DNA of 61,790 nucleotides, counting the filler, from Dugesia japonica (taxonomy: Eukaryota): the NCBI GenBank assembly GCA_001938525.1. It is 6 parts of 6 records of this genome, joined end to end, with 100 filler letters (N's around TTAATTAATTAA, not from the genome) between each part and the next. Parts side by side here need not be neighbours in the genome. Positions count along the whole stretch, not along the records: positions 21,148 to 33,754 come from MQRL01543369.1; 5 more parts are not named here. One strand, written 5' to 3'. The position numbers and the translations under genes are program-made. Positions 6,101-61,110 of the stretch are shown here, piece by piece; positions within the stretch are counted from its first letter, which is position 1, and every line of letters begins with the position of its first letter. The notes beneath the pieces are model-generated. The model saw only the letters and a program-made list of their open reading frames with translations. It had not been told where the DNA came from and searched no databases.

Positions 6101-9100
6101 GATTATGAGGAAGCATTGATTTTTATGGCGATAGTTGGGACTAGTAAGCGTAGGTAAAATTGTGAGAAGGTTGTCTTTGTCACTGCATTCATTTTTATAT
6201 TTTAATTATCTTATACAAAGTATTTTGCAGTCAGAATTAATCCTATTTTATTTCAATTTAATGATGACAACAGAAATAAAGTTTTCGAATAAACACAACA
6301 TTATTAAATATAAAAATAAATACACTAGCATGATAAGATTTTAATACAAAATGAACATTAAGATTCCTTGCTCGATGATCCTTCAGTGGATATCCAAAAA
6401 AAATAACAATAGTTGCAATTTTCAGTGAGTTTCTTCAACCTTTTATAATGACACAAAAATTTTATCTCGAAAAGGCTCAATAACTAGACTAAAACTTGAC
6501 AAAACTTCTAAATTTCAGGGGGATTTATATAGGTTACCTTTTGTAACTCATTTTTCTTCCGATTTATGAGTTATTTTAAAACTCATTATTTCCTCTTTAA
6601 TTGGCCCCTTATTTTTAAAATTCGAATTCTCTGTATCTGTCTTTGTTCTTTATTAGTTGTTATTTTAAGCAATTACATCATTTTTACTTCTTTGTTTTAA
6701 GTCTTTTTTCTGGTCTCTTATTGGCTTAATTTTTGTACTCTTCTCCTGGTTTTCCTGAAGGTTTCCTGTTTTTAAATTTATCAAAATCGTATTGTTCATT
6801 TTGAACGCTTAACTTTTTTTTTATCCCGTCATTTTCTGACCATCCTAAGTAAAGTTATTTGTCTTTTCTTCTTTTACCACTAACTGACCTTTATTTTTAT
6901 GTACTAATTAATTAATAATTTTTTTATTCGTTTTATTTCATTTTTTATTAATTTTTATAAATATGATTCGGTATTCTAATGTTTTAATAAAGTTAACCAA
7001 CTTTCTTCTTCTTTCGTATTCTAGTTATATTCTTTTTTTATTCTATTATTTCTCAATTAATTTCTAATTATTAGTAAATTAATTTGTTGCGATTCCGCTC
7101 CTTCTTACTTCTTTTTATTCCATTTCTAATTACATAAAACTCTGATTGTTTGAGGTCCCGCTTATTCCTATTATTACTTTTTCTGGGTGTTTCACCACAA
7201 AATTTATATTAGTTATGTCTAAAGTTATAAGGTTTAACATATTGTTGCGTTTCTTGGATTTTGATGTTAAAATTAAATTTACTTTTTTCCTCCATCTTCC
7301 TTTACATTTAATTATTCTGTCAACAGTCTAGAGCCATACCAATAATCCTCAAGCGATTACGTCGCCACTGTGACATGCCAATCAATTCTCGGGTTCCGTG
7401 CAATTTTGTGGTTTCGCGTCTTGCATTCTGATGCTATTGAACAATCTTACATCACTTGCTCAGTTTGTACCTCGTTTAGTCTTTATTTTATAAATCATAA
7501 TTAATCATTACATGATGAAACTGGTCATACATAATTCACAATCAAATTACAACAAATTCAGCTACAATTATTTATGTTTTACATTTACTCGCTGAGATCA
7601 ACAGTGTTTCCTTTAGCCACGCTTTCCTCTCTTGTCGGTTAGTCCAATGAGGGTATTAAGCATGGTGGCCTCACGGTTGGCGTATATTTTGATAACGTCA
7701 GCCATGAGGCGGCTGGCCTGTTGTAGTGCCAACTCTTTATCCTTCAGCTGTTGATATTTTATGTATTTTTGTTACCTGTTCTTTTAACCGTAGCACTTCG
7801 TTCCACCGCTTTCTGGGTTTCTCTTTTCATCTTGTTTGTGTGTTCAGCAACTCTTTTTAGGTCACCATTTTCTTACTCACTAATTAACGAACATCAATTG
7901 TCGTTAAAATACCGTTTCATAGAAAAATATGATCGTGTTATTTAGTCGATCATCTCGTTACATATTTAGAAAACTTGATTTAGTTGATTTTTTGAAACGA
8001 ATAAAAATAATACATCTGCCTCTGCAGTTTAAAGTAACCATAACTTTTCAATTATTCAATTCGTCTTAGTGTGACGTACATATCATTCTTATTAATTGAG
8101 TAAAACAACGAAATAATATTGAATCTTTATTTTGCTAAGGATTCAGTTTTGAATATGACGGGATCCCAGATCTCTATCAGGTCATAATTTTCTTGCATCA
8201 AGTTGGTCAGCAATCGTTCCTCAGCTTGACTCAAGCGCTTTCCTTGCTCAACATTACTCTTGATTGAAGCTGACAATTCTCCGAGAGCCAAGCATGTTTT
8301 TTTTGGGCTCGGTTTTCTTTCATCTTAGTTCTCTCCTTATCAACGCGTAGTGCTGCTAATTCCTGCTTTAGGCTGCGGTTTTCCTTTAGCAACTCCTGGC
8401 ATTGAACTTTCAAGGCTGACTTTTCTTTTTCAAATACCTCCTTTTTCCGTCGATCAGTTCTACGGTGCATCGCCAAGGGATCTAGAATTTTCCGTCTTCA
8501 TCATTACTTAAAAGCAGCGGGATATCTTTGCAAAAATATTCTGTCATTATCTATATTACATAAAGTTAATCATATTTTTTATTATAAACCTCAGGGGTCT
8601 ATTCAATTAATAAAAATAAAGGAAATCTAAATCAATACCACGATTTTTCAGCCTGTGGCCTATTATGCCTTCCAGTGGCGTAGACAGGAATAAATGAAAT
8701 GGGATTTATGTTCGGGATCATGGGCATAGAGAGCCAAGGTGGGGCTTGGGAAGATGCTCAAAATGGAAAATTTTAGTAAGCGGAACGCTAACAGTTTGAT
8801 ATTGGTGTTGCAAAACTGCGGGTCCTCGTGTTTACGAATGCGATTCCCAAAGGTGCGAGCGCGCGCGATTAGAGGGGCTGCAAAATTGTATAGTTATTAT
8901 TTTACTGATATTATGACACTGTATCTATTCATCATCATCACCGTTTTACGACCACCTGTCAAATGTCCAAACAAGCTTGGGTTGGTCGGCTGCTCCCCAA
9001 CAGCAAGACAGATAGCCAATTAAACTTTTAACTAAAACTTTTTAACAACCATATACTTGGTTTGGGAAGCTGGTCAATCAGCTATACTGAGGAATGCGAA

Positions 9101-18527: not shown

Positions 18528-21047
18528 ATGACGATTGAAGAATACAGTAAATTCTTTTTAAAATAACTTCAAATAATAATCTAGAAAAGTTTATTAAACG
18601 GTGTGAAATATACTTCGAGGCAAAGAACATCGTTGTTAAGATAGATCAGAAATGTTGGATAACATGTATGCTTCATGAAGATTTAATGGAAGCATTGTGA
18701 AGACATTGAAGAAAGTTAACGGATATCGAGAGTGATTGCGATTAGCTTTTAAGAGCAAGAGAGACGTAATAAAAAATTTACATAATCTTGTAAGCCATCG
18801 ACTTGGGGATGAAGTGCTTTAAGTGTTTTTTTAGAAAAGTGGAAGATTTGATCGATAAATTTTAGCAAATGAAATGCTGACGAAAGAAATACTCTTATCA
18901 AAAATGCTAATAATTTGTGCAGATAGTAAAAAAGCAGAAGAAGAGATTATCCTGCGAAATTAGAGAAAGTAGAAGATATAAATGAAACGCTATCATTAGT
19001 TGAAAAAATTGAAAGAAGAGAACCTATTAACGTAGTAAAGAGTTATGCGTAGGTAACACGGGGCGAACGTACTCGAGAGAGGAGACAAAGAATCGAGGGA
19101 GTTACGAAAAGAACAGAACTACAGTGCTGAACATGCCAAAGTTATGGGCATACAAAAAGAGAGTGTCCAAGTAATTCTCAAGTGGAATGTTGGACTTGCC
19201 ACAAGAAAAGGCATTTAAGTAGAAATTGTCCAGACAAGAAACCACTAAAATGTTTTGGGTGTGGTAAAATTGGTTAAATCAGAAGGATGTGTACAGAATA
19301 TTGTATGCTGTAGATGTAAAAGACCAAATCACAGAACGGAAAAAGTTATTCAAACCTTAATAAACCTAGATTAGAAGAGAGAAGATACTTTTTTAAAAGT
19401 TGACAACAAACAAAATATTGTTGTCGGACCTAACAAATCCATGCCATTCGAGAAGAGGATGATGAGGAGAATGACGAGATATTTTCTGGGAGCATAATAG
19501 ACAATGAAGATCCGAGAAGAGAATACCCAAAAAGGAAGGGCTCCATCAGTAGAGGAATTGGCCGGAGTCATTCATTAAAAAACATGCTGTTTGATTATCC
19601 TTAGGAGGCCGAGAGATGGAATGATATGAACAAAGTTGGAGAATAGGTTTACAGATTCNTAAAAAGAGAAAGTTACAATGATTTGGAAGTTAACAAAGCA
19701 GAAGTCGTAGAAACAATTGAAGATAAACAGAACATAGAAATTTCATATGATAAAATGCAAGGGAGACCTAGCATTTCAATCATGATCAAGTGTGAACAGT
19801 TTGATTGTTTGTTAGATACAGAAGCAAGAATAAATGTAATGAGCATGAAAAGATTTAGTAGACTCGGAGAAAAAATGCTAGAAAAGCGAATAACAATTGT
19901 ATTGCACGAATAACAGCTTATTGGAGACAATTGGAAATATACGTGTGGATGTTGTAATTTCAGAGGTGTGCAAGGAAGTAACATTTATAATAGTAGATAA
20001 ATTAATACCAAATCTAATTGGTGTAGTGCAATTTCAGAATATTTTTGGATATCATCTTTAAAGAATGTGCAGGGTAGACATCAATAATCATCGAGAAAAA
20101 CTTGTTTGCAACATCGAGGCAAAATTTGGTGGGCAGATACAGACGGGTGAACGATTGAGACATGCAATGGAGATTCTAGACATTAACAAAGATCATAGAT
20201 TGACTCCGATTTTTCAAAATAATGAGGATTTATTAATGGCGGATAAATGGGACATTGGATGTACACACTTAACGAAGCATAGAATTATCATTAAAGGAGG
20301 TTCAATCAACATAAAACCATTTCGCTAACCAATGAATCTAGAGGAGAATATTGAAGAGGCCATCAAGAATCTGTATGATAACGGTACCATCCGGAAGTGT
20401 AATTCTCAATGGAATACGCCATTAATCTGCGTTTGTAAAAAGAAAAAAAGAATATACGATTATGCTTAGACTTTAGACACTTCAATGCAATAACAGAAAG
20501 ACAAGCTTTTTCTATGTAAAATGTGGACGAAATGCTGGATGCTTTGAAAGGTACACTGTATTTTTGCTCAATAGACTTAAGGAATGCATATTATCAAGTA
20601 AAACTGATTGAAGATTCTCAAGAAAAGACGACTTTTTCGACCAAACAAGGGCAACTTTGTTTCAATTGAATGCCTTTTGGAATTGCAGCAGCACAAGGTA
20701 CGTTCCATGAAATGATGAATAAAGTGATTGGAAAAATAAAAGGAGCGATGATTTATATAGATGATATTCTCATATTTATGGAAACAAAGGAGTAGCACTA
20801 TGAAATAGTCAATAAAGTATTGACAGAAATTAAGAATGTTGGTCTAAGAGTTAATCAGGAAAAATATCAATTTATGCGAAAGNAGATCAAATTTTTGGGA
20901 CACGTTATCAGTAAAGAAGGTGTCAAAACAGATCCAACTAAAATAGAAGCAATTAAGAACTTTATTAAACCAAAATGGGTAAAAAAGATGAGAAGCTTTT
21001 TGGAAATTTGCAATTACTATCACAAGTTTATTAAAGATTATTCGAAA
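18528..21047 (+). mobile_element. Decayed Ty3/Gypsy LTR retrotransposon (gag, protease, RT), cut by scaffold end
   Basis: Several CCHC knuckles at 19125-19330, LLDTEA protease-like site, LCLDFR, MPFG, YIDD (20754-20765), FLGH; many stops. Confidence 0.93.
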
Positions 21048-21221
21048 NNNNNNNNNNNNNNNNNNNNNNNNNNNNNNNNNNNNNNNNNNNNTTAATTAAT
21101 TAANNNNNNNNNNNNNNNNNNNNNNNNNNNNNNNNNNNNNNNNNNNNTAATAATAAATAATAATAAATAATAATAAATAATAATAATAAATAATAATAAT
21201 ATATAATAATAGTATATGAAG

Positions 21222-22928: not shown

Positions 22929-23084
22929 ATGGATTTAGAAATAATATTTAATACTAAGAAAGTTTCACATACTTATGTTTCATCAGAAGATATAAAAAAA
23001 TTTTATGAAAAAATATCAGCTGAACCTAAAAAAACATTACAAGATTATAAAAATCTTTATTCAAAATATTACTTTATAAAATGA
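22929..23084 (+). CDS. Small viral protein, 51 aa (below the ORF-track cutoff)
   Basis: MDLEIIFNTKKVSHTYVSSEDIKKFYEKISAEPKKTLQDYKNLYSKYYFIK; stop overlaps the MCP start (ATGA). Confidence 0.55.
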   Translation: MDLEIIFNTKKVSHTYVSSEDIKKFYEKISAEPKKTLQDYKNLYSKYYFIK

Positions 23085-24621
23085 TAGATTTAGATTATAA
23101 TATTGAATTTCAACATACATCAATTAAAAATGATATTCTAAAGATCTCGCCTTCATCAGGCTCAATTAACAATTTAAATGCCAATGGTGATATTGTATTC
23201 CAGAGTCTTCAATCTACAAATCCATTGGACATTTGCAATGCATTATTATACTTCAGAATTGAAATTAATATTCCAGAAGTAGCAAAAGATAAAATAACTC
23301 TCGAAAATAATTTCTTTCCAAGTTTATTTAAATTAATGAGATTAACCCTAGGCTCTACACATATTGAAACAATTAATGATCCAGGTTTTATCTCAACAAT
23401 GTTAAATTTCATCACAACAACTGAGACTTATAAAAAGGAATATGGTCAATTATCAGGTTGGATACCAGACATAAATCAAGGTGACACTGAAGTAAAATCA
23501 TGGGAAAGTAACCTTGGCTATTATAACAGAAAGAAACTTTATAAATCTAATAAATTTGAAGGTTATTTTCAGTTAAGAAATTTATTTGGCTTTTTCCAAA
23601 ATTATAATCGTCTATTATACAATACGATGATAGAATTTACATGCAACCGTCAATTAGAAGATAAATTAATATTCTATNNNNNNNNNNNNNNNNNNNNNNN
23701 NNNNNNNNNNNNNNNNNNNNNNNNNNNTATAAATCTAATAAATTTGAAGGTTATTTTCAGTTAAGAAATTTATTTGGCTTTTTCCAAAATTATAATCGTC
23801 TTTTATACAATACGATGATAGAATTTACATGCAACCGTCAATTAGAAGATAAATTAATATTCTATTATGAAAAAGATTCTTCCGCAACATTGAAACTTTT
23901 AACTCTCGAACTTCACATTCCAGAATCGCGATTATTACCAAGAAAAGAATTAATTCTACTAGAACGCATATCAACAAATAAACCAATTAAAGTTTCATTT
24001 TTAAATCGTCTTTCCGCGAAATCAAATCTTGACTCCGGCGGTTATTATTCAATTAAAATTAGCTCTTTAGCATATCAACCTAGATATATTTTAATTTNCT
24101 TTAAAGATCCAGAAAATTCATATCAAAAGTATAATAATTTATTTATACAAAGTACATATACAACCAAAAAAGAAAAAGTTAAAGAAAAAGTTAAAGAAGG
24201 AGATAAAGATGTAGAAAAAGAAGTTGAAAAAGAAGTAAAAGAATATAAATGTATAAAAGGTATCCAGTTACAATTAAACAATACTTATTATCCAATCAAC
24301 GAATTAAAGTTTGACATGAGAAATAATGAAATGGCATATCCTTATTCTCAATATATAAAATGTTGTCATGAATTCCTAACAGAACCACAATTATCATTAA
24401 TGGACTATAAAAATTTATATCCACTGTTCTGTTTCGATACAACAGCTCACGATGATAAAATGAATATTAATAATGTCGATGTCACACTTCATATTACAAA
24501 AGATTCAGAATTTCGTGGAACACTTTACTGGTGCATTCTTGAAGAGAAACATGTTGAAATGAAACTTGCTAATAATAAAATTGTTTTAGTTGAAAATATG
24601 AGAGGACTTGATATAAAATAA
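23081..24621 (+). CDS. Major capsid protein (double jelly-roll, Polinton PY/hexon-like); split only by a gap-associated duplication
   Basis: NNFFPSLF...IETINDPG, QPRYILIxF, LNNTYYP, YKNLYPLFCFD motifs; 23540-23677 repeated at 23728-23865 across the N gap. Confidence 0.88.
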
Positions 24622-24630
24622 ATATAAGAA

Positions 24631-25986
24631 ATGTCCTCTAAAAAGTTTATCTGTGATTATTGTGGTAAAATATTATTAAAAAAAAATAAATCTCGACATT
24701 TAGATTTATGTATTAACAAAGCACACAAAAAACCACAAGGGCAACAAGGGGGAGATTTACAAAATTCAAGTGTAATATCTAAATTATTAAAACCAATAAC
24801 TACAGAGAAATATCCAGGTGAACGTCATTTATTCCGTCATAATTACACTGGCCCTGGCACTAGATTAGATATCCGACTTGAAGAAGATGCCGAAGGAAAT
24901 TTAGTTCCACGTGAAGGTGAAGAACCTATTAATCAAGTTGATGCAGCTGCATTAAAACATGACATCTCCTATAATTCAGAAGATATCCGTGATCGCCATA
25001 TTGCAGATGTAAATTTAATACATGATCTTAATAATATTGAAAATCCTAGTCTCCAAGAGAAATTTCAGAGAGCCCTTGTAAAATTGGCTATGAAAGGTAA
25101 GATAATGATAGGCCAGGGTCAGAAAAACCACAAGGCCAACAAAAAAGCATTAAGAAAAACTATAATTAAGAAAGAAGAATCTGATGATGAAATTGATCCA
25201 GGAGAAATTAAAAGTAAAGAACTACATAAAGAATATAGAAAACCTAAACATTTTAGAAAAGTCATTGTTCATCATAAAGATGACATTTGGTCAGCCGATC
25301 TCATCTTCCAAGGCACAGAACGTAAAGGAAAACATGTAATTTTAACAGTTATAGATCTTTATACGCGATTCGCATTCATCGAACTCTCTAATAATAAAAC
25401 TGGTCCTAAAGTAACAGAAGCGTTTAAAAGAATCCTTGATAAAAGTTCTAGAACCCCAAAGAAATTATGGGTTGATGAAGGTAAAGAATTTTATAATTCA
25501 ACTTTTAAATCTTTCTGTAAAAATAATAATATTGAAATCTATTCAACTCAAAATCAAGGTAAAGCAGTCGTTATCGAACGTTTCAACCGAACTTTTAAAA
25601 ATAGGCTTTTTAAACATTTTACTTTTTCTGGATCTCAAGATGTAGATTCAGAATTATTAGATAAAATAGTTAATAATTACAATAATCATATACATTCAAG
25701 TATTAACATAACACCTCAAGAAGCAACAATAAATCCAGAAAATATAGAAATCCAAGCACCAAAACCATACACTGAAAAAGTTAAATTTAGAATTGGAGAT
25801 CGCGTAAGAATAATTAAAATTGGAAAAACATTTCCAAAAGGCTACACTTATAAATGGTCAACAAAAGGTTATTTGATAACAAAAATATATCATTACTCGC
25901 CAATAACATATGAAATCTCAAATCTTAACGGTGAAAAGATACTTGGTAGATTCTATACTTCTGAACTTCAAAAAACAGAATTATAA
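24631..25986 (+). CDS. Fusion protein: Zn finger, parvovirus VP1-type phospholipase A2, retroviral-type (rve) integrase
   Basis: CDYC..H...C; HNYTGPG and DAAALKHDISY..RHIAD (PLA2); WSADL, WVDEGKEF, VIERFNRT (D223/D282/E316); C-terminal FRIGDRVRI..KGY..KWS..GRFY..ELQK typical of Maverick integrases. Confidence 0.93.
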   Translation: MSSKKFICDYCGKILLKKNKSRHLDLCINKAHKKPQGQQGGDLQNSSVISKLLKPITTEKYPGERHLFRHNYTGPGTRLDIRLEEDAEGNLVPREGEEPINQVDAAALKHDISYNSEDIRDRHIADVNLIHDLNNIENPSLQEKFQRALVKLAMKGKIMIGQGQKNHKANKKALRKTIIKKEESDDEIDPGEIKSKELHKEYRKPKHFRKVIVHHKDDIWSADLIFQGTERKGKHVILTVIDLYTRFAFIELSNNKTGPKVTEAFKRILDKSSRTPKKLWVDEGKEFYNSTFKSFCKNNNIEIYSTQNQGKAVVIERFNRTFKNRLFKHFTFSGSQDVDSELLDKIVNNYNNHIHSSINITPQEATINPENIEIQAPKPYTEKVKFRIGDRVRIIKIGKTFPKGYTYKWSTKGYLITKIYHYSPITYEISNLNGEKILGRFYTSELQKTEL

Positions 25987-26056
25987 GAAAGCAAACCCAT
26001 AAAGGCCATAAAGGCAGAAGGAGAAGACAGTGTTAGATTAAATTAAATAATATAAA

Positions 26057-26248
26057 ATGAAACAACTTCTGCGAACTAAACACTTCTTCTCCGAACTTGA
26101 AACTATAATTGAAACAATTGAACACTCTTCTGAACTTGAATTATATTATAAAATTTCAGATTTTCAACACTGCTTTATGCGAACTCAACCCGAACCCGAA
26201 CATGATGATATTTTAGATTTCGATGAAGATATTGGAAATGAGAATGAA
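26057..26248 (+). CDS. Acidic viral ORF (N-terminal part only; continues into a gap)
   Basis: MKQLLRTKHFFSELETII...HDDILDFDEDIGNENE, open until the Ns. Confidence 0.5.
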
Positions 26249-26556
26249 NNNNNNNNNNNNNNNNNNNNNNNNNNNNNNNNNNNNNNNNNNNNNNNNNNNN
26301 NNNNNNNNNNNNNNNNNNNNNNNNNNNNNNNNNNNNNNNNNNNNNNNNNNNNNNNNNNNNNNNNNNNNNNNNNNNNNNNNNNNNNNNNNNNNNNNNNNNN
26401 NNNNNNNNNNNNNNNNNNNNNNNNNNNNNNNNNNNNNNNNNNNNNNNNNNNNNNNNNNNNNNNNNNNNNNNNNNNNNNNNNNNNNNNNNNNNNNNNNNNN
26501 NNNNNNNNNNNNNNNNNNNNNNNNNNNNNNNNNNNNNNNNNNNNNNNNNNNNNNCT

Positions 26557-36583: not shown

Positions 36584-38402
36584 GGTGGTAAGACAAAATA
36601 TACTCAGACAAAATATATCCGACAAAATATATTAAGACAAAATATATTTAGACAAAATATTAGAACAATATATATTAGGACAAAATACTATTGACAAAAT
36701 ATATTGAGACAAAATATTTGGAGACAATATATTGGGACAAAACATATTATGACAAGATATATTAGAACAAAATATATTGAGATAAAATTTAAATGATGAC
36801 ATCTTCAAAGTTTTTTAATTTGAAGAACCTGTATTACTTTNNNNNNNNNNNNNNNNNNNNNNNNNNNNNNNNNNNNNNNNNNNNNNNNNNATCCGACAAA
36901 ATATATTAAGACAAAATATATTTAGACAAAATATTAGAACAATATATATTAGGACAAAATACTATTGACAAAATATATTGAGACAAAATATTTGGAGACA
37001 ATATATTGGGACAAAACATATTATGACAAGATATATTAGNACAAAATATATTGAGATAAAATTTAAATGATGACATCTTCAAAGTTTTTTAATTTGAAGA
37101 ACCTGTATTACTTTCAAATAAAAGTTACACTAATATATAATTAAATATAATAAATTATTAATTAATTAATTGATGTATATCTTTTACAGCTAAACAGAGA
37201 CTAGGTTTTATTTTAATTAATTAATAATTTAATTTAACGTGTAGTTAACAACCTTCCAAGAAGCAATAACGCGGCAGAAGGATGGCATAATGCTTTCAAC
37301 TTTATGGTTAACATTTCACATCCAACTGTAGGCAGACTGGCTTAAAAATTGCAGCAGCAACACACCTCAGCATCAAGAGAAATCAAATTAAAACTGGTCA
37401 ACCACTTGTTAAGAAACGAAAAACGTATCAACGAATAGAATATCAATGATACCACTAAAATTATGGTTTATGGTTACAATTCAATGGATCAACTGACATA
37501 TTTAACAAACATTGCTCGTATTTTGAATATTAATGTAACATAGTTAAGTTCTGTTAATATAAATACAATTTTGTTAGTTAATTTATTGGTTATTAATTTT
37601 AATTGTTAAAAATATTATTACTAACTATGTTATTTATTAATGTTTTGTATATTGTGACATAGTTACATATTTTATACTATAGACTAGTATTTCTCAATCT
37701 TTTCTTCGTTATGTCCCCCGAAAATCCTTTTAAAACCTTCATGCCCCCCCCTCCATATAATTACTTGGAAAAAAATAAAGACGATGTTTTTGGTAATTAA
37801 ATAAAAAGTACACCATGTACAATAAGAAATTAGTTACATATATAGGTATTTATTTTAACAAATAGAATTTTAAAGATTTACTAATCACTAGAAAATTATC
37901 ATTGCTGTATTAAATAAATTTTTAAACAAACAAGTTTAGAATTGAAAATTTCAAATTGCCCCCCTGTGGAGCGTGGGCCCCACGTTGAGAAACACTGGTA
38001 TAGACTCTCGATTATCCGAGTATGGGTTATTCAGTTTCCGGATTATTCGTGTATTAAATTAAATTATTAATAAATAAATAAAACCTAGTCTCTGTTTAGC
38101 TGTAAAATATATACATCAATTAATTAATAAGGAATTTATTTTATTTAATCATATATTAGTACAACTTTTATTTGACAGTAATACAGGTTCTTCAAACTGA
38201 AAAACTTAGAAGATTCCATCATATATATTTTGTCTCAATATATTTTTTCCTAATATAGTATTTAGTCTGAATACTAAAAGTATTTAGTTGTCATAATATA
38301 TTTAGTCTGAATATTATTTGTCATAATATATTTTGTCTGATATATTTTGTCTGATTTATTTTGTCGAAAATATTTTGTCTGAGTATATTTTGTCATGGAA
38401 CC
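36584..38402 (+). mobile_element. Non-autonomous MULE/foldback element with long repetitive TIRs and 8-bp TSD
   Basis: GACAAAATAT arrays inverted at both ends; 37171-37210 is approximately the reverse complement of 38079-38119; TSD TGTCCAAG at 36576-36583 and 38403-38410; internal NNAAEGWHNAF..HPT MULE motif. Confidence 0.85.
37685..37997. mobile_element. Charlie-type hAT MITE nested in the MULE
   Basis: TAGTATTTCTCAA / TTGAGAAACACTG ends; TSD CTATAGAC/GTATAGAC. Confidence 0.8.
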
Positions 38403-41089: not shown

Positions 41090-43584
41090 AAGATACTACA
41101 CTGTCCTCTATACTATCTAGTGTAAAGTGCCCATATGGTACATATATGCTTTTACTAGTCCATTCTCGCTTATCGTCGTTATTAGTGAGTGCGACTTTTT
41201 TGTTCTTAAAGTTATACAACTGGTGGTTTATCGAACCCATTCTAAATTGTTCTATTGATGCTGGCAAATTATTTTCATAACAGTCAAAGTATGACTGATG
41301 TTTTAAATTATTATTCTTTATTGTTATGTCTTTGCCTTCATCGTTCTTTTGTCACTCAAAAGGCTATAACACTTTGGTCTCAAGAAAATCAATTCTTTGA
41401 ACTTAACCTCTTTTCTTTCGTCCTTAAATTTCCCAATGACTGAAATAAGACTGTTACTGTAAAGGGAGTGACTTGTGTTGTAATTGGATGTGTCCAATAA
41501 CTGGTCCTTCACCATCAAACCGGTTAGCTTTTCCAAACTTATATCTACAACTTAGTAAATGAATGCAAACGTACGAGGCCACTTGTGAAATTTTACTTTT
41601 TACATAGAAGTATCACAAAATCTTTAGAAATTGTATAGAAGTTACTAAATATTTTAAAAAATTGCATAAAAGTCAATAATCTTTTATGAAAATGCATAGA
41701 AGTCACAAAATATTTTATGAAATCGCATAGAAGTTATAAAACAAATTCACAAGTGGCCTCGTACGTATGCATTCCCCTACTCAACTTCAAGAAAAATATT
41801 TATTTACAGTATTTATTTTACAATTTTCTTCTCTACGGTACTTTTCCAACTCCAAGTACTATAGTTGGTACATTCGTAACTTTGAGAGATCAAGTACCGC
41901 CCGTCCAATGTAGCTCGGACGATCTAAACATATAATTTCTTTATTAAGGAGGACAGCTATCAGACCATCGTCTATTTTGATTGCTTTTCTGAATCCAGCT
42001 TTCGAAGTGTATATCATCAACTTCTTTGCTGAATTACACAAGCGCAAATTTTGTTCTCTTCCTAGGGTTCTCCACCGTTTTCCCATATAAGCTATTGTTG
42101 AGTAGTTTGTGGTAATTTTTCTAATTCTGTATCCACTTTTGATATTAACTTCGTATTAATATCAATATATTTTATTAAATATTTGTCCTTGACTAAATTG
42201 AACTCTCCTGTGTACATTTGTAACCTGTCCACCCAACTTTATCTATATATGTAGCAGCCTTCAGTGAATGATGTAGTTTTTCCTAGGATAATGTGTCAAC
42301 ATCAATTTTTTCCCTTTACTGTTTGTAGCGAATTGGCGTTCCACTGCTACTGGGAGATCACTTAGATAATCCTGTATTTCCACTGGAATAACCATATTCA
42401 CCTCTAATGAGTATCCGTATGGCAACGAGTCAAAATTCGCAGTCTTACATTCCTCCAAAACATTATCCAATCCTGTGTGAACCCATTCGAAATCTGCATA
42501 GGGCAACTTCTGACTTAATGCCCAGTCATACAGATTATTTATGTCAATGTACAGTAAATCAGTGTTCTCATTACAGGCAACATGAAGTTTGTTGACAAAT
42601 GTTAGCTTTCCTCTAATTCCACCTTCAAAAAAGGTGTACATGTCATTATCTTTAAACAGTTCGATTGGTTCATTTTTTTGACATCACTGATGAATCCCAA
42701 ATTACATGATTTATAGGTAGTTTCTTTATATTCCTCGGTAAAATGGTTGTGATCTCGAACCGGGTTTATTAGTCTCTGTTTGCATAAATAACAATTTTGG
42801 GCTGTTGCAAACTAATTTTCTTGCAATGAAGTAATCGTCATCTGCTTATTACCATGATCTTTGTAATAAGGTCCCATTATATTTTTATTAATATCTTCAA
42901 CTGCCAATAAAAACTGATAAATTCAGTCATTTCCAATAAACTGGTTGTATTTTANNNNNNNNNNNNNNNNNNNNNNNNNNNNNNNNNNNNNNNNNNNNNN
43001 NNNNNNNNNNNNNNNNNNNNNNNNNNNNNNNNNNNNNNNNNNNNNNNNNNNNNNNNNNNAGTGATTGTTTTCCCGAAATCCTTGAATGTTAATTTTGTTT
43101 TTGTTGGCATAGTGTACATGGTAGTGCCAGTTTGAATACGATCGCAAATCGGTTGATAATTTTCGAATGTCTTTCTCAAGCAAAATCTATTCAGACAATT
43201 GGAACATCATAATGTTTGTATCCTTAGACCATTTGATTTCCTATCCCGATTCATGAGACGATTTAAATTTAATACTACGGTATAATGAAATTTATCTTTA
43301 TCCTCAAGCAGTAATAAATTAATCTTTTTTTCGCCAACAACTTTCGAACGATGTATGATATCGAGGTTCGGATGTTTCATCACCACATCACCGTTGACGT
43401 CTTCAAAACATTGAGAGTTCCACGATAACACATTTATAGATAACCCCGGATTTCTTTCTTCAAACTTTCTAATGTTCTTTAACTTCATCGGCAAATCAGA
43501 CTCATCATACTTTAATTCTGACATGAATCTATAGTATTGACAGGCTTTGTATCTATGATTTCCACCTCATCCTTTTTGAGCATG
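41090..43584 (-). pseudogene. Decayed Polinton protein-primed DNA polymerase B
   Basis: RDHNHFT, GGIRG, YIDINNLY, KLLNNSLYGKTVEN, PSYIG.AVLDLSKLRMY, GKFKDE, LRPKCYS, NDDKR...PYGH. Confidence 0.92.
41561..41774. mobile_element. MITE inserted in the pPolB pseudogene
   Basis: 29-bp TIR GAATGCA(A/T)ACGTACGAGGCCACTTGTGAA (1 mismatch); internal ATAGAAGT repeats. Confidence 0.8.
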
Positions 43585-56145: not shown

Positions 56146-57099
56146 ATGTTGATTCACAAAATAGATTTCATGAAATTCATCATATATTTCGAATGTGGAG
56201 ATAATTATCTTTATTTTGCTTTAAGATGTTGCTTTATGATTTGTACTTTAATTGGTAATTTATTGTTTTTAATTGCACTTCAGAAATACAAAATCGCATC
56301 AAAAAATCCACAATTATTAATAAATTTTCAAACTGGAAATAATATCTTACTAATAATTATTTATTTTATTACACAAATTCAAGAATATGAACCATTCTCT
56401 TCAAATTACACTGGTTATGTTTACTTTTATTGTTTCTTTTGGATTTATGGATTTTTTCTTCAATTTTGTAGTGTTATCGATATGTTTCTAACGGTTTTAA
56501 TATCATTTGATCGGTTCATTTGTATTGTTTTTCCATTAGTTTATAAAAAAATAATTAAAAGATTTATTGTTATTTTAATTATTTATATTGTTATCATTTC
56601 TTTTTATTTAGAAATATTTTATTTATCTCTCAACTATAACATGTCATTTTACTATAACANNNNNNNNNNNNNNNNNNNNNNNNNNNNNNNNNNNNNNNNN
56701 NNNNNNNNNNNNNNNNNNNNNNNNNNNNNNNNNNNNNNNNNNNNNNNNNNNNNNNNNNNNNNNNNNNNNNNNNNNNNNNNNNNNNNNNNNNNNNNNNNNN
56801 NNNNNNNNNNNNNNNNNNNNNNNNNNNNNNNNNNNNNNNNNNNNNNNNNNNNNNNNNNNNNNNNNNNNNNNNNNNNNNNNNNNNNNNNNNNNTATTTGAC
56901 AATATTAATAATCGATTGTTTAATGTATTTTCTTAGTTATCCATATTGGAATATGAATAGTAAAAAATGTTTTCTCTATTTTCTCAGTTATATTTTTTCA
57001 CTTTTAATTTCATCGAGTTTTGTTATTTATTTTTTGTTGTTTAAAAAAATTGCAAAATGTATTTGTGATTGTATTTTTCGTAAATTAAAATTATTCTAA
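56146..57099 (+). CDS. Divergent intronless rhodopsin-family GPCR (middle in gap)
   Basis: GN in TM1, TM3 C...SFDRFICIVFPLVY (DRY-like), multiple hydrophobic helices, FVIY..F.K tail with Cys. Confidence 0.8.
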   Translation: MLIHKIDFMKFIIYFECGDNYLYFALRCCFMICTLIGNLLFLIALQKYKIASKNPQLLINFQTGNNILLIIIYFITQIQEYEPFSSNYTGYVYFYCFFWIYGFFLQFCSVIDMFLTVLISFDRFICIVFPLVYKKIIKRFIVILIIYIVIISFYLEIFYLSLNYNMSFYYNXXXXXXXXXXXXXXXXXXXXXXXXXXXXXXXXXXXXXXXXXXXXXXXXXXXXXXXXXXXXXXXXXXXXXXXXXXXXXXYLTILIIDCLMYFLSYPYWNMNSKKCFLYFLSYIFSLLISSSFVIYFLLFKKIAKCICDCIFRKLKLF

Positions 57100-59859: not shown

Positions 59860-61110
59860 CACGAAGTAGTTATCCCTACATCCCAGCAGCTAAATATGAG
59901 AAATACTTGTGGGAACTTGTATTTGATGAAACGGGCATGCCGATGAAGTTTGCAAATATTTTTAAGTTTGAAAAGAATAATCAGGGCCTTTGAACAAATG
60001 TTTTGTCTTGGAATCCAAATTTAATAGATGATGAGTTAGAGAAAAATGTAAAGAAACATCCTAACTTAGATATTATTCATTGGAGTAAGGTTGAGTGGCT
60101 AGAAAATATACTTGTTATTGTTCGAGATTAAGAAAAAAACATTATAATGAATTTGAACACATTTATAAATATTGACGTAAAAGAAGATAGAATAAGATTT
60201 AGATCAACTTGATGTCCAAATTGCTTGAATTTATTTAGGAATAATATTGTTTACGAATAATATGGTCCTCTTTACAGTGAAATTCAAAGTGGTACTACGT
60301 TGTATACAATGCCTACAGAAAAAGACTTAATATTTAAGGATTTCATTAAAACTGTAAACCAAAATTTTTTATTTATGCAAATTTTAAATCTGTATAAGTA
60401 AAATATTCTGATTATCATTAAAAACATTTACATATTTATACTGGACTATTATTATTATTAGTTATTATTATTACTACTGAAACTAAACATCACCAATTCA
60501 TAAAGTATGGTAGTATATATGATTTTCTCTTTTGTATTTAAGAAATAGTAAAAATAAAATGAAAATATCAAAAGATGAAGAAATCTCATTTAAAGCATTG
60601 TCTATCTGCTCTTTGTGTAGTAACCTTATAATAAAATCCTTTCGAGGTCATAATCATTATACCGGTGAAGATCATAGAGTAGCATACTTAAAATATAATT
60701 GAAGTAAGAAAATTAAAATTAAGTTGTCTTTAGCCTTTCATAATTTGAGGGGATATAATCTACGTCTTATTTTAAATCATTGTCTTAATAGATTTTAAAA
60801 ATTTGAAATTTCTTGTATCCTTACAACTAGTGAAAAATATTTATGTCTCATTACACACATTTTAAAATAACAGAAAAGTTTATAGATAGTTATCAATTCA
60901 TTAATTTGTCCTTAGACTCAGCTATTAAAACAATAAAATCAACTACATTGACAATGAAATAGTGTAGTGATAGTGAAATTGTCAAATCTAAGAGTATGTT
61001 TCATTATGATTTCCAAACCACCTTAAAGGTGCTTGAAAAATCAATGTCATTCCCACCGAGATAGGATGGAGTTACCAAAGAATTGTTTGTGAAAGCAGTT
61101 GAGATGTAGG
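59860..61110 (+). pseudogene. Second decayed Polinton pPolB (N-terminal/exonuclease part)
   Basis: MPMK...KFEKNN..NVLSWN..HPNLDIIH, CPNCLN, GTTLYTMPT, HNHYTG, FHNLRGY, FIDSYQF; collinear with 42700-43524. Confidence 0.85.

Follow-up and report, generated by a model that had tools for sequence, protein, structure and literature searches.

Whether animal Polintons form infectious particles is a long-standing question; their virions have never been seen, and one report describes Maverick-Polintons as having no known virion (10.64898/2026.06.19.733378). For adintoviruses and Maverick-Polintons, the phospholipase A2 protein PLA2X was proposed to act in entry (Starrett 2021, PMC8502044; Geisler 2018, PMC5803895), and another paper already proposed the Polinton PLA2 to be packaged and to aid entry (PMC4642659). 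The mavirus protease is reported to cleave GG/X and GY/G, with the slash marking the cut, and both the integrase and a predicted hydrolase that is itself cleaved and has a GK/G site are reported from mavirus virions (PMC6048507). Adintovirus Penton and Hexon-Adenain were predicted to be -1 slippery-site fusions (Buck 2024, PMC11071296), and the frameshift section of that paper names neither a PLA2-integrase nor a protease-integrase product. Fusions of either kind, or cleavage or frameshifting at their junctions, were not found described in the full-text literature, including the accessible parts of PMC3671162, PMC11296320 and PMC12220804 (the fusion may be shown in figure maps, supplements, Repbase or subscription journals); the pairing of PLA2 and integrase Pfam domains is already present in database annotations. 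Here we analyse a PLA2-integrase fusion that is real and widespread and seems to be a so far undescribed variant of a known system.

The fusion gene and the element around it

The window, that is, the whole 61,790-nucleotide stretch of Dugesia japonica DNA analysed, contains a reading frame of 451 codons, single and uninterrupted on translation, with the following parts:

24631..25986, plus strand: PLA2-integrase fusion ORF, 451 aa (P0001; translation, Pfam, relatives)
24652..24726, plus strand: putative N-terminal zinc finger, C8/C11/H23 with C27 or H32 (sequence, weak Pfam)
24748..24756, plus strand: G40-G41/D42, second candidate protease site, N-terminal to the PLA2, in predicted disorder at 31-43 (alignment, model)
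24826..25113, plus strand: parvovirus-type PLA2 domain, Y72-x-G-P-G loop, H110-D111, D126, last helix 141-161 (Pfam, alignment, model)
25105..25119, plus strand: junction M159-I-G-Q/G163, candidate GX/G protease site at the PLA2 helix end (alignment, model)
25117..25182, plus strand: predicted disordered linker, residues 163-184 (model, alignment)
25198..25983, plus strand: rve-type DDE integrase, D223/D282/E316, C-terminal beta domain (Pfam, alignment, model)

Both enzyme domains scored above the curated Pfam cut-offs, PF08398 (parvovirus-type PLA2) at residues 66-149 (E 1.2e-8) and the rve core at residues 214-305 (E 4.4e-10), E316 being read off the translation. With its loop Y72-x-G74-P-G76, the H110-D111 pair and the downstream D126, the PLA2 has the YxGPG, HD and D features of the PF08398 type and is predicted to be a phospholipase. 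It matched AAV VP1 in sequence (E 0.017), and its fold matches were densovirus and parvovirus VP1 models; with VIA-align, rice PLA2 gave Z 7.0 (rmsd 4.0, 94 aligned), a score that unrelated helical hairpins tie. The initial annotation had described one 451-aa ORF with a zinc finger, a PLA2 and a DDE integrase, and M159-I-G-Q-G163 between the two enzymes. The fused enzymes, all the residues named for them and the intervening motif (25105-25119) are where it placed them; C8/C11/H23/C27 of the finger are also in place, but Pfam support for the finger is weak (E 0.08-0.16). In relatives, the leader is a zinc finger, a DUF5679 domain, a basic peptide or absent.

The same annotation had proposed looking in the reads for a stop or frameshift between the domains. 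A 120-nt contig from DNA run X1 (25077-25196), which may be the source sample, crosses the junction with 0 differences and no indels listed. Since relatives are fused too and this contig bridges the junction, we ruled out an assembly artefact or a Genscan-type join. A second X1 contig (25116-25219) represents a family variant with a far shorter in-frame linker and again a GxG, and the length of the linker is highly variable across relatives.

The gene lies between the double-jelly-roll capsid gene and the A32 ATPase, with the protease and the minor-capsid pieces on the opposite strand:

23081..24621, plus strand: double-jelly-roll major capsid protein, two pieces flanking a 50-N gap (PF21738)
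26051..27186, plus strand: A32-type packaging ATPase, interrupted by a 306-N gap (Pox_A32, E 2.4e-5)
30560..31057, minus strand: C5 (adenain-like) cysteine protease with H72/D88/Q110/C117 (Peptidase_C5, E 9.6e-6)
31088..32647, minus strand: minor capsid (penton-like) pieces, labelled from the gene order or ORF homology of relatives
32725..33246, minus strand: conserved Polinton protein, function unassigned, one K-I-GG/K motif, clustering with 16 ORFs of related loci
41118..43566, minus strand: type B DNA polymerase fragments, broken, in several frames, only a candidate for the same element

With an rve integrase, double-jelly-roll capsid, A32 ATPase, C5 protease and minor capsid, the element is an integrated Maverick/Polinton. 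Its protease, which the initial annotation had already located, belongs to the C5 family, and the intact H72/D88/Q110/C117 support an enzyme predicted to be active and encoded by the element itself; a partial second copy (31468-31887) lies within an 830-nt duplication around N gaps. The minus strand at 27496-30567 is occupied by two long, mutually related ORFs (437 and 565 aa) that include gaps, internal repeats and a stretch of hydrophobic residues. Neither Pfam nor a comparison with the ORFs of the larger related loci gave a match for them, and they may encode fibre- or membrane-active proteins. A short DNA motif recurs at 24731 and 25126 (plus) and at 30896, 31726, 32926, 33002 and 33418 (minus), mostly within ORFs but in differing frames and often reading K-P-Q-G-Q-Q, with a related motif at 25997, 26006, 27436, 30643 and 32671; one contig per DNA run links 24720 with 25126 across it.

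Around the element the DNA is AT-rich and contains decayed transposons and a weak match to a 7TM receptor, which makes an animal host probable. Tc5/DDE_1 transposase remnants lie at 1317-2134, Ty3-type remnants, judged by eye, at 19647-21095, a single-exon-like 7TM GPCR ORF that crosses a gap at 56146-57099 (plus; weak 7tm_1/Srx matches), and another, weak type B polymerase fragment at 60550-61043 (plus). The 15-nt tandem units and 182-nt inverted repeat pair (37032-37213 / 38076-38257) at 36573-38401 look like a MITE-like insertion; they lie between the virion genes and the polymerase fragments.

Whether this copy is alive is an evenly balanced question. It could be a silent relic, the mechanism proposed below then holding for the family and not for the locus, which is compatible with that proposal. 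RNA reads were near zero in two polyA libraries (9 partial reads from 1887 Mb in one, a single partial read from 1749 Mb in the other), no RNA dataset was listed as containing the fusion ORF, the polymerase is present only as broken pieces 8-10 kb away, and neither terminal inverted repeats nor a target-site duplication were found in the window, where the assembly is gapped. However, the ORF and the protease are intact, two libraries cannot establish silence in every tissue, and each DNA run placed about 7,700-8,200 short contigs of variants on the stretch, a figure that is not a copy number but points to a large family.

Distribution of the fusion and conservation of its junction

The fusion is a widespread family trait, not a one-off. 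A search for the PLA2+rve architecture, as the initial annotation had suggested, bore this out: among the query and the best 120 of 460 relatives, some of them near-copies, 99 of the 121 aligned proteins have the catalytic residues of both PLA2 and integrase (H110-D111, D126, D223, D282) in one chain. Metagenome loci are fused in frame in 38 of 80 cases; 7 of the 80 have a same-frame stop (six inside the PLA2 match, L077 between the domains) and 17 have no PLA2 in view, and both groups were kept outside the fused and -1 counts. The long loci L008, L024, L030 and L038 have polymerase, ATPase, fusion, capsids and protease on one contig. A viral contig search with the whole alignment as query returned 9 loci, L081 included, and the same search with the single window protein returned no match. 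Across the wider integrase family, the best 150 representatives include 10 PLA2 and 3 protease fusions, the remaining 137 having neither partner by motif and profile tests. Two single sequences, either of which could be a gene-calling join, have further domains: P0365 is an ATPase-PLA2-integrase triple fusion of 684 aa, and P0363 has a protease domain N-terminal to its PLA2.

The initial annotation had read the junction as an adenain site. The strict adenain consensus is (M/I/L)xGx/G and (M/I/L)xGG/x. It occurs once in the window protein, and 5000 shuffles gave 0.48 per protein, with at least one in 39%, so the motif alone is weak evidence and its value depends on conservation. Conservation does not extend to the strict form, which was found at the junction in 9 of 99 fused proteins and 1 of 26 in a second set (22 Lottia gene models left out; 10 of the 38 remaining rows off the anchor pattern), and we rejected it as a conserved trait. 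The low count arises because P4 is usually Lys (65/99), and the strict match of the query is thus incidental. The part of that reading that stood is the glycine core: GG/X or GX/G is present at the junction in 91 of 99 fused proteins and 24 of 26 in the second set, where four further LxGG sites fall outside the search pattern; 8 of the 99 have neither form. K157 and G161 are found in all 99, giving the consensus K-x-K-hydrophobic-x-hydrophobic-G-(X-G or G). P0358 retains GxG though just two residues remain to be removed. Before the PLA2, in the bin of G40-G41/D42, a GG or GxG occurs in 66 of 99. Covariation between the GG and GXG forms looked strong by Fisher test (p 1.7e-6, inflated by kinship), but a tree test left 5 independent pairs with a sign-test p of about 1, and we dropped it as independent proof.

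Evidence bearing on cleavage

We propose that the leader-PLA2-integrase protein is a virion-packaged precursor which the C5 protease would cut at G40-G41/D42 and at G161-Q162/G163, freeing a phospholipase and an integrase, and put the probability of this reading at roughly 0.58. Behind it stand the joining of the two domains in one frame, their catalytic residues, the conservation of GG/X or GX/G, the protease gene and two alternative couplings of the integrase in relatives. Cleavage of the junction with mavirus-type specificity is the best reading of the sequences, and three independent lines favour it.

The first line is the second fusion partner. Some relatives combine an adenain-like protease, an integrase and a chromodomain, with a GG or GxG in each linker:

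Proteins: P0085, P0090, P0092, P0095, P0107, P0109, P0117, P0188, P0308
Metagenome loci: L033:4593-5957, L046:7579-8925

In the comparison of tails, which excluded 14 models from Lottia as well as rows carrying remnants of integrase, the motif was in 10 of 10 linkers of protease-integrase fusions, in 1 of 11 of the short tails of free proteases and, as background, in 13 of 906 windows of 25 aa from the integrase part. On the integrase tree (FastTree, 244 integrase rows), the protease-integrase state changes 4 times, at least 2 of them forced. Free PLA2s had the motif in 7 of 8 cases when the tail exceeded 6 aa, the single miss being a mis-anchored row that actually has GG, and in 4 of 9 when it was shorter, in a small and related set.

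The second line comes from related elements, where one family of small ORFs of core-like type contains 74 motifs against 44.6 expected (0/200 shuffles); no such enrichment was found in the major capsid protein, minor capsid or ATPase of these elements. The commonest P4 residue at the small core-like sites is Lys and the commonest P2' Leu, matching the junction (the 108-site tally drew on ORFs preselected for three or more sites). Elsewhere in the window such motifs are few, and its own small core-like gene may lie inside a gap or be absent. The third line is placement, as both sites lie in or border low-confidence, probably disordered model segments (31-43 and 163-184). The free-standing integrase P0306 has, in residues 1-15, a short leader with L-R-G-G/A, a strict adenain-type site.

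Alternatively, the fusion may work uncleaved, G161 capping the PLA2 helix, G163 starting a flexible hinge and the integrase staying tethered. In the full model the last PLA2 helix terminates at G161, and G161 is invariant in the 18 shorter, free PLA2 proteins aligned, so that it may indeed be a helix cap; in the PLA2-only model the helix continues through the site at lower confidence. Cutting at the junction would have to unwind P4-P2 from the helix in these models. The missing adenain-type P4 in 90 of 99 proteins and the non-significant covariation after correction for kinship also fit a permanent tether. However, the distant PLA2s P0361 and P0363 end ahead of the glycine, which means that the fold can do without it, and a tether leaves unexplained the motif in the protease-integrase linkers, its enrichment in small core-like proteins and the upstream GG/D site. 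We consider it unlikely, though a serious competitor to cleavage.

It is also conceivable, but far less probable, that the protease trims only the leader (at GG/D) and PLA2 tails, the junction being an inherited tail site, the release of integrase incidental and the fusion a tolerated stop loss between neighbours. The three closest free PLA2s (65-68% identical) end 1-5 residues past G161, and the tree shows frequent switches between the fused and the free state (FastTree, 244 integrase rows); P0122-P0124 count as free PLA2s by their protein sequences. A chance stop loss fits poorly with fused integrases that have no start of their own and retain just a short helix after the linker, and with a coupling maintained by two routes, in frame and by a -1 shift with heptamer and hairpin, across deep divergence.

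This second route is seen in relatives in which the integrase overlaps the end of the PLA2 in another frame, -1 in 15 of 80 loci (L023, L041, L042, L049, L057, L058, L059, L065, L069, L071, L072, L073, L074, L076 and L080) and +1 in 3 of 80. All 15 have an in-phase heptamer directly past the GxG codons (9 A_AAA_AAC, 4 A_AAA_AAA, 2 T_AAA_AAA), perfect in 13, compared with a perfect heptamer at the same place in 4 of 38 in-frame loci. Hairpins with z < -2 follow in 5 of 15, compared with 1 of 38 in-frame loci (p 0.02 by Mann-Whitney test, without a correction for kinship). All 15 are candidates for programmed frameshifting. At the junction of the window itself, we rejected a slippery site, with only imperfect heptamers and the hairpin absent.

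The -1 forms could instead be unprogrammed, products of indels or assembly errors in the A-runs of dead copies, leaving only the in-frame fusion as real. Seven loci with runs of 6-10 A and no downstream structure could be such A-run indels; one clade has in-frame and -1 copies at one A-run, with a similar locus in +1; and the 9-pair stem shared by four loci of one clade, although fully paired, has three one-sided and 0 compensatory changes. Against this, the bias is 15 to 3 in favour of -1, five divergent members of one clade as well as the unrelated L042 retain an in-phase six-A heptamer followed 5-6 nt later by a hairpin, and the -1 state requires 8 tree changes, at least 6 of them forced, for the 11 of 15 loci in the tree. 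We find indels or errors an improbable account of the -1 forms as a whole.

A proposed packaged integrase and known systems

If the precursor is cut as proposed, the packaging handle that carries the integrase into the particle, as Gag does for Pol, would be the PLA2 part here and the protease in other lineages. The C5 protease of the element would cut the precursor as the particle matures, the freed PLA2 may aid membrane penetration and the freed integrase would insert the incoming genome. In frameshifting lineages, the -1 shift would yield much PLA2 and little PLA2-integrase, and the window copy would produce both at 1:1. The fusion on which the initial annotation built is supported; that annotation overlooked the second site at G40-G41/D42 and the -1 and protease-integrase forms of relatives. 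It had seen in the fusion a coupling of membrane entry to integrase delivery. We prefer a packaging device because cutting would separate the PLA2 from the integrase.

A conserved layout of carrier, cleavage site and integrase is what a packaged integrase would need, and relatives arrived at it through two or more fusion partners and, probably, through frameshifting as well. The Gag-Pol-like reading, if true, would constitute molecular evidence for particle formation and for integration on entry without prior expression of integrase; if the precursor is cut by the element's own protease, this would be a retrovirus-like route carrying integrase into new cells. It also predicts a Polinton protease that tolerates Lys at P4 and takes a hydrophobic P2', and many "split" PLA2 and integrase gene calls may be recoding sites.

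The element resembles adintoviruses and Maverick-Polintons in its double-jelly-roll capsid, A32 ATPase, adenain-like protease, rve integrase and parvovirus-type PLA2 (PMC8502044; PMC5803895). It differs in that PLA2X, as described in PMC8502044, has a gene of its own and a pX-like tail, whereas here a linker and then the integrase replace the tail, which sets the protein apart from PLA2X proper. In PMC5803895, CAP and INT are separate ORFs. Nor is this a strict adintovirus, defined by an integrase with a C-terminal chromodomain and a PolB carrying an OTU domain at its N-terminus (Buck 2024): the window integrase ends earlier and has no Chromo match in Pfam, and several relatives have the domain. 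Mavirus (Born 2018, PMC6048507) is similar in its clan CE protease cutting GG/X and GX/G and in having an rve integrase and a processed predicted hydrolase in virions; the junction studied here fits this substrate pattern and is a candidate site. In mavirus, however, MV02 and MV13 come from different genes, and MV13 is predicted to be an alpha/beta hydrolase rather than a PLA2 (PMC6048507).

The VP1-unique PLA2 of parvoviruses has the same Ca-loop, HD and D residues but is joined to a capsid protein rather than to an integrase. In the Gag-Pol precursors of retroviruses and LTR elements, the integrase is C-terminal, behind a particle protein, and is freed by the element's protease; some lineages make Gag-Pol by a -1 shift at A_AAA_AAC plus a hairpin. 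We suggest, tentatively and at a little under even odds, that a large branch of Polintons converged on this solution, placing integrase behind a virion protein, dosing it by -1 frameshifting in some lineages and releasing it in the particle at GG/X or GX/G. The likeness would be one of working only, and a Polinton is no member of that group: it is a dsDNA virus with a cysteine and not an aspartic protease and no reverse transcriptase, and its integrase carrier is a phospholipase or a protease.
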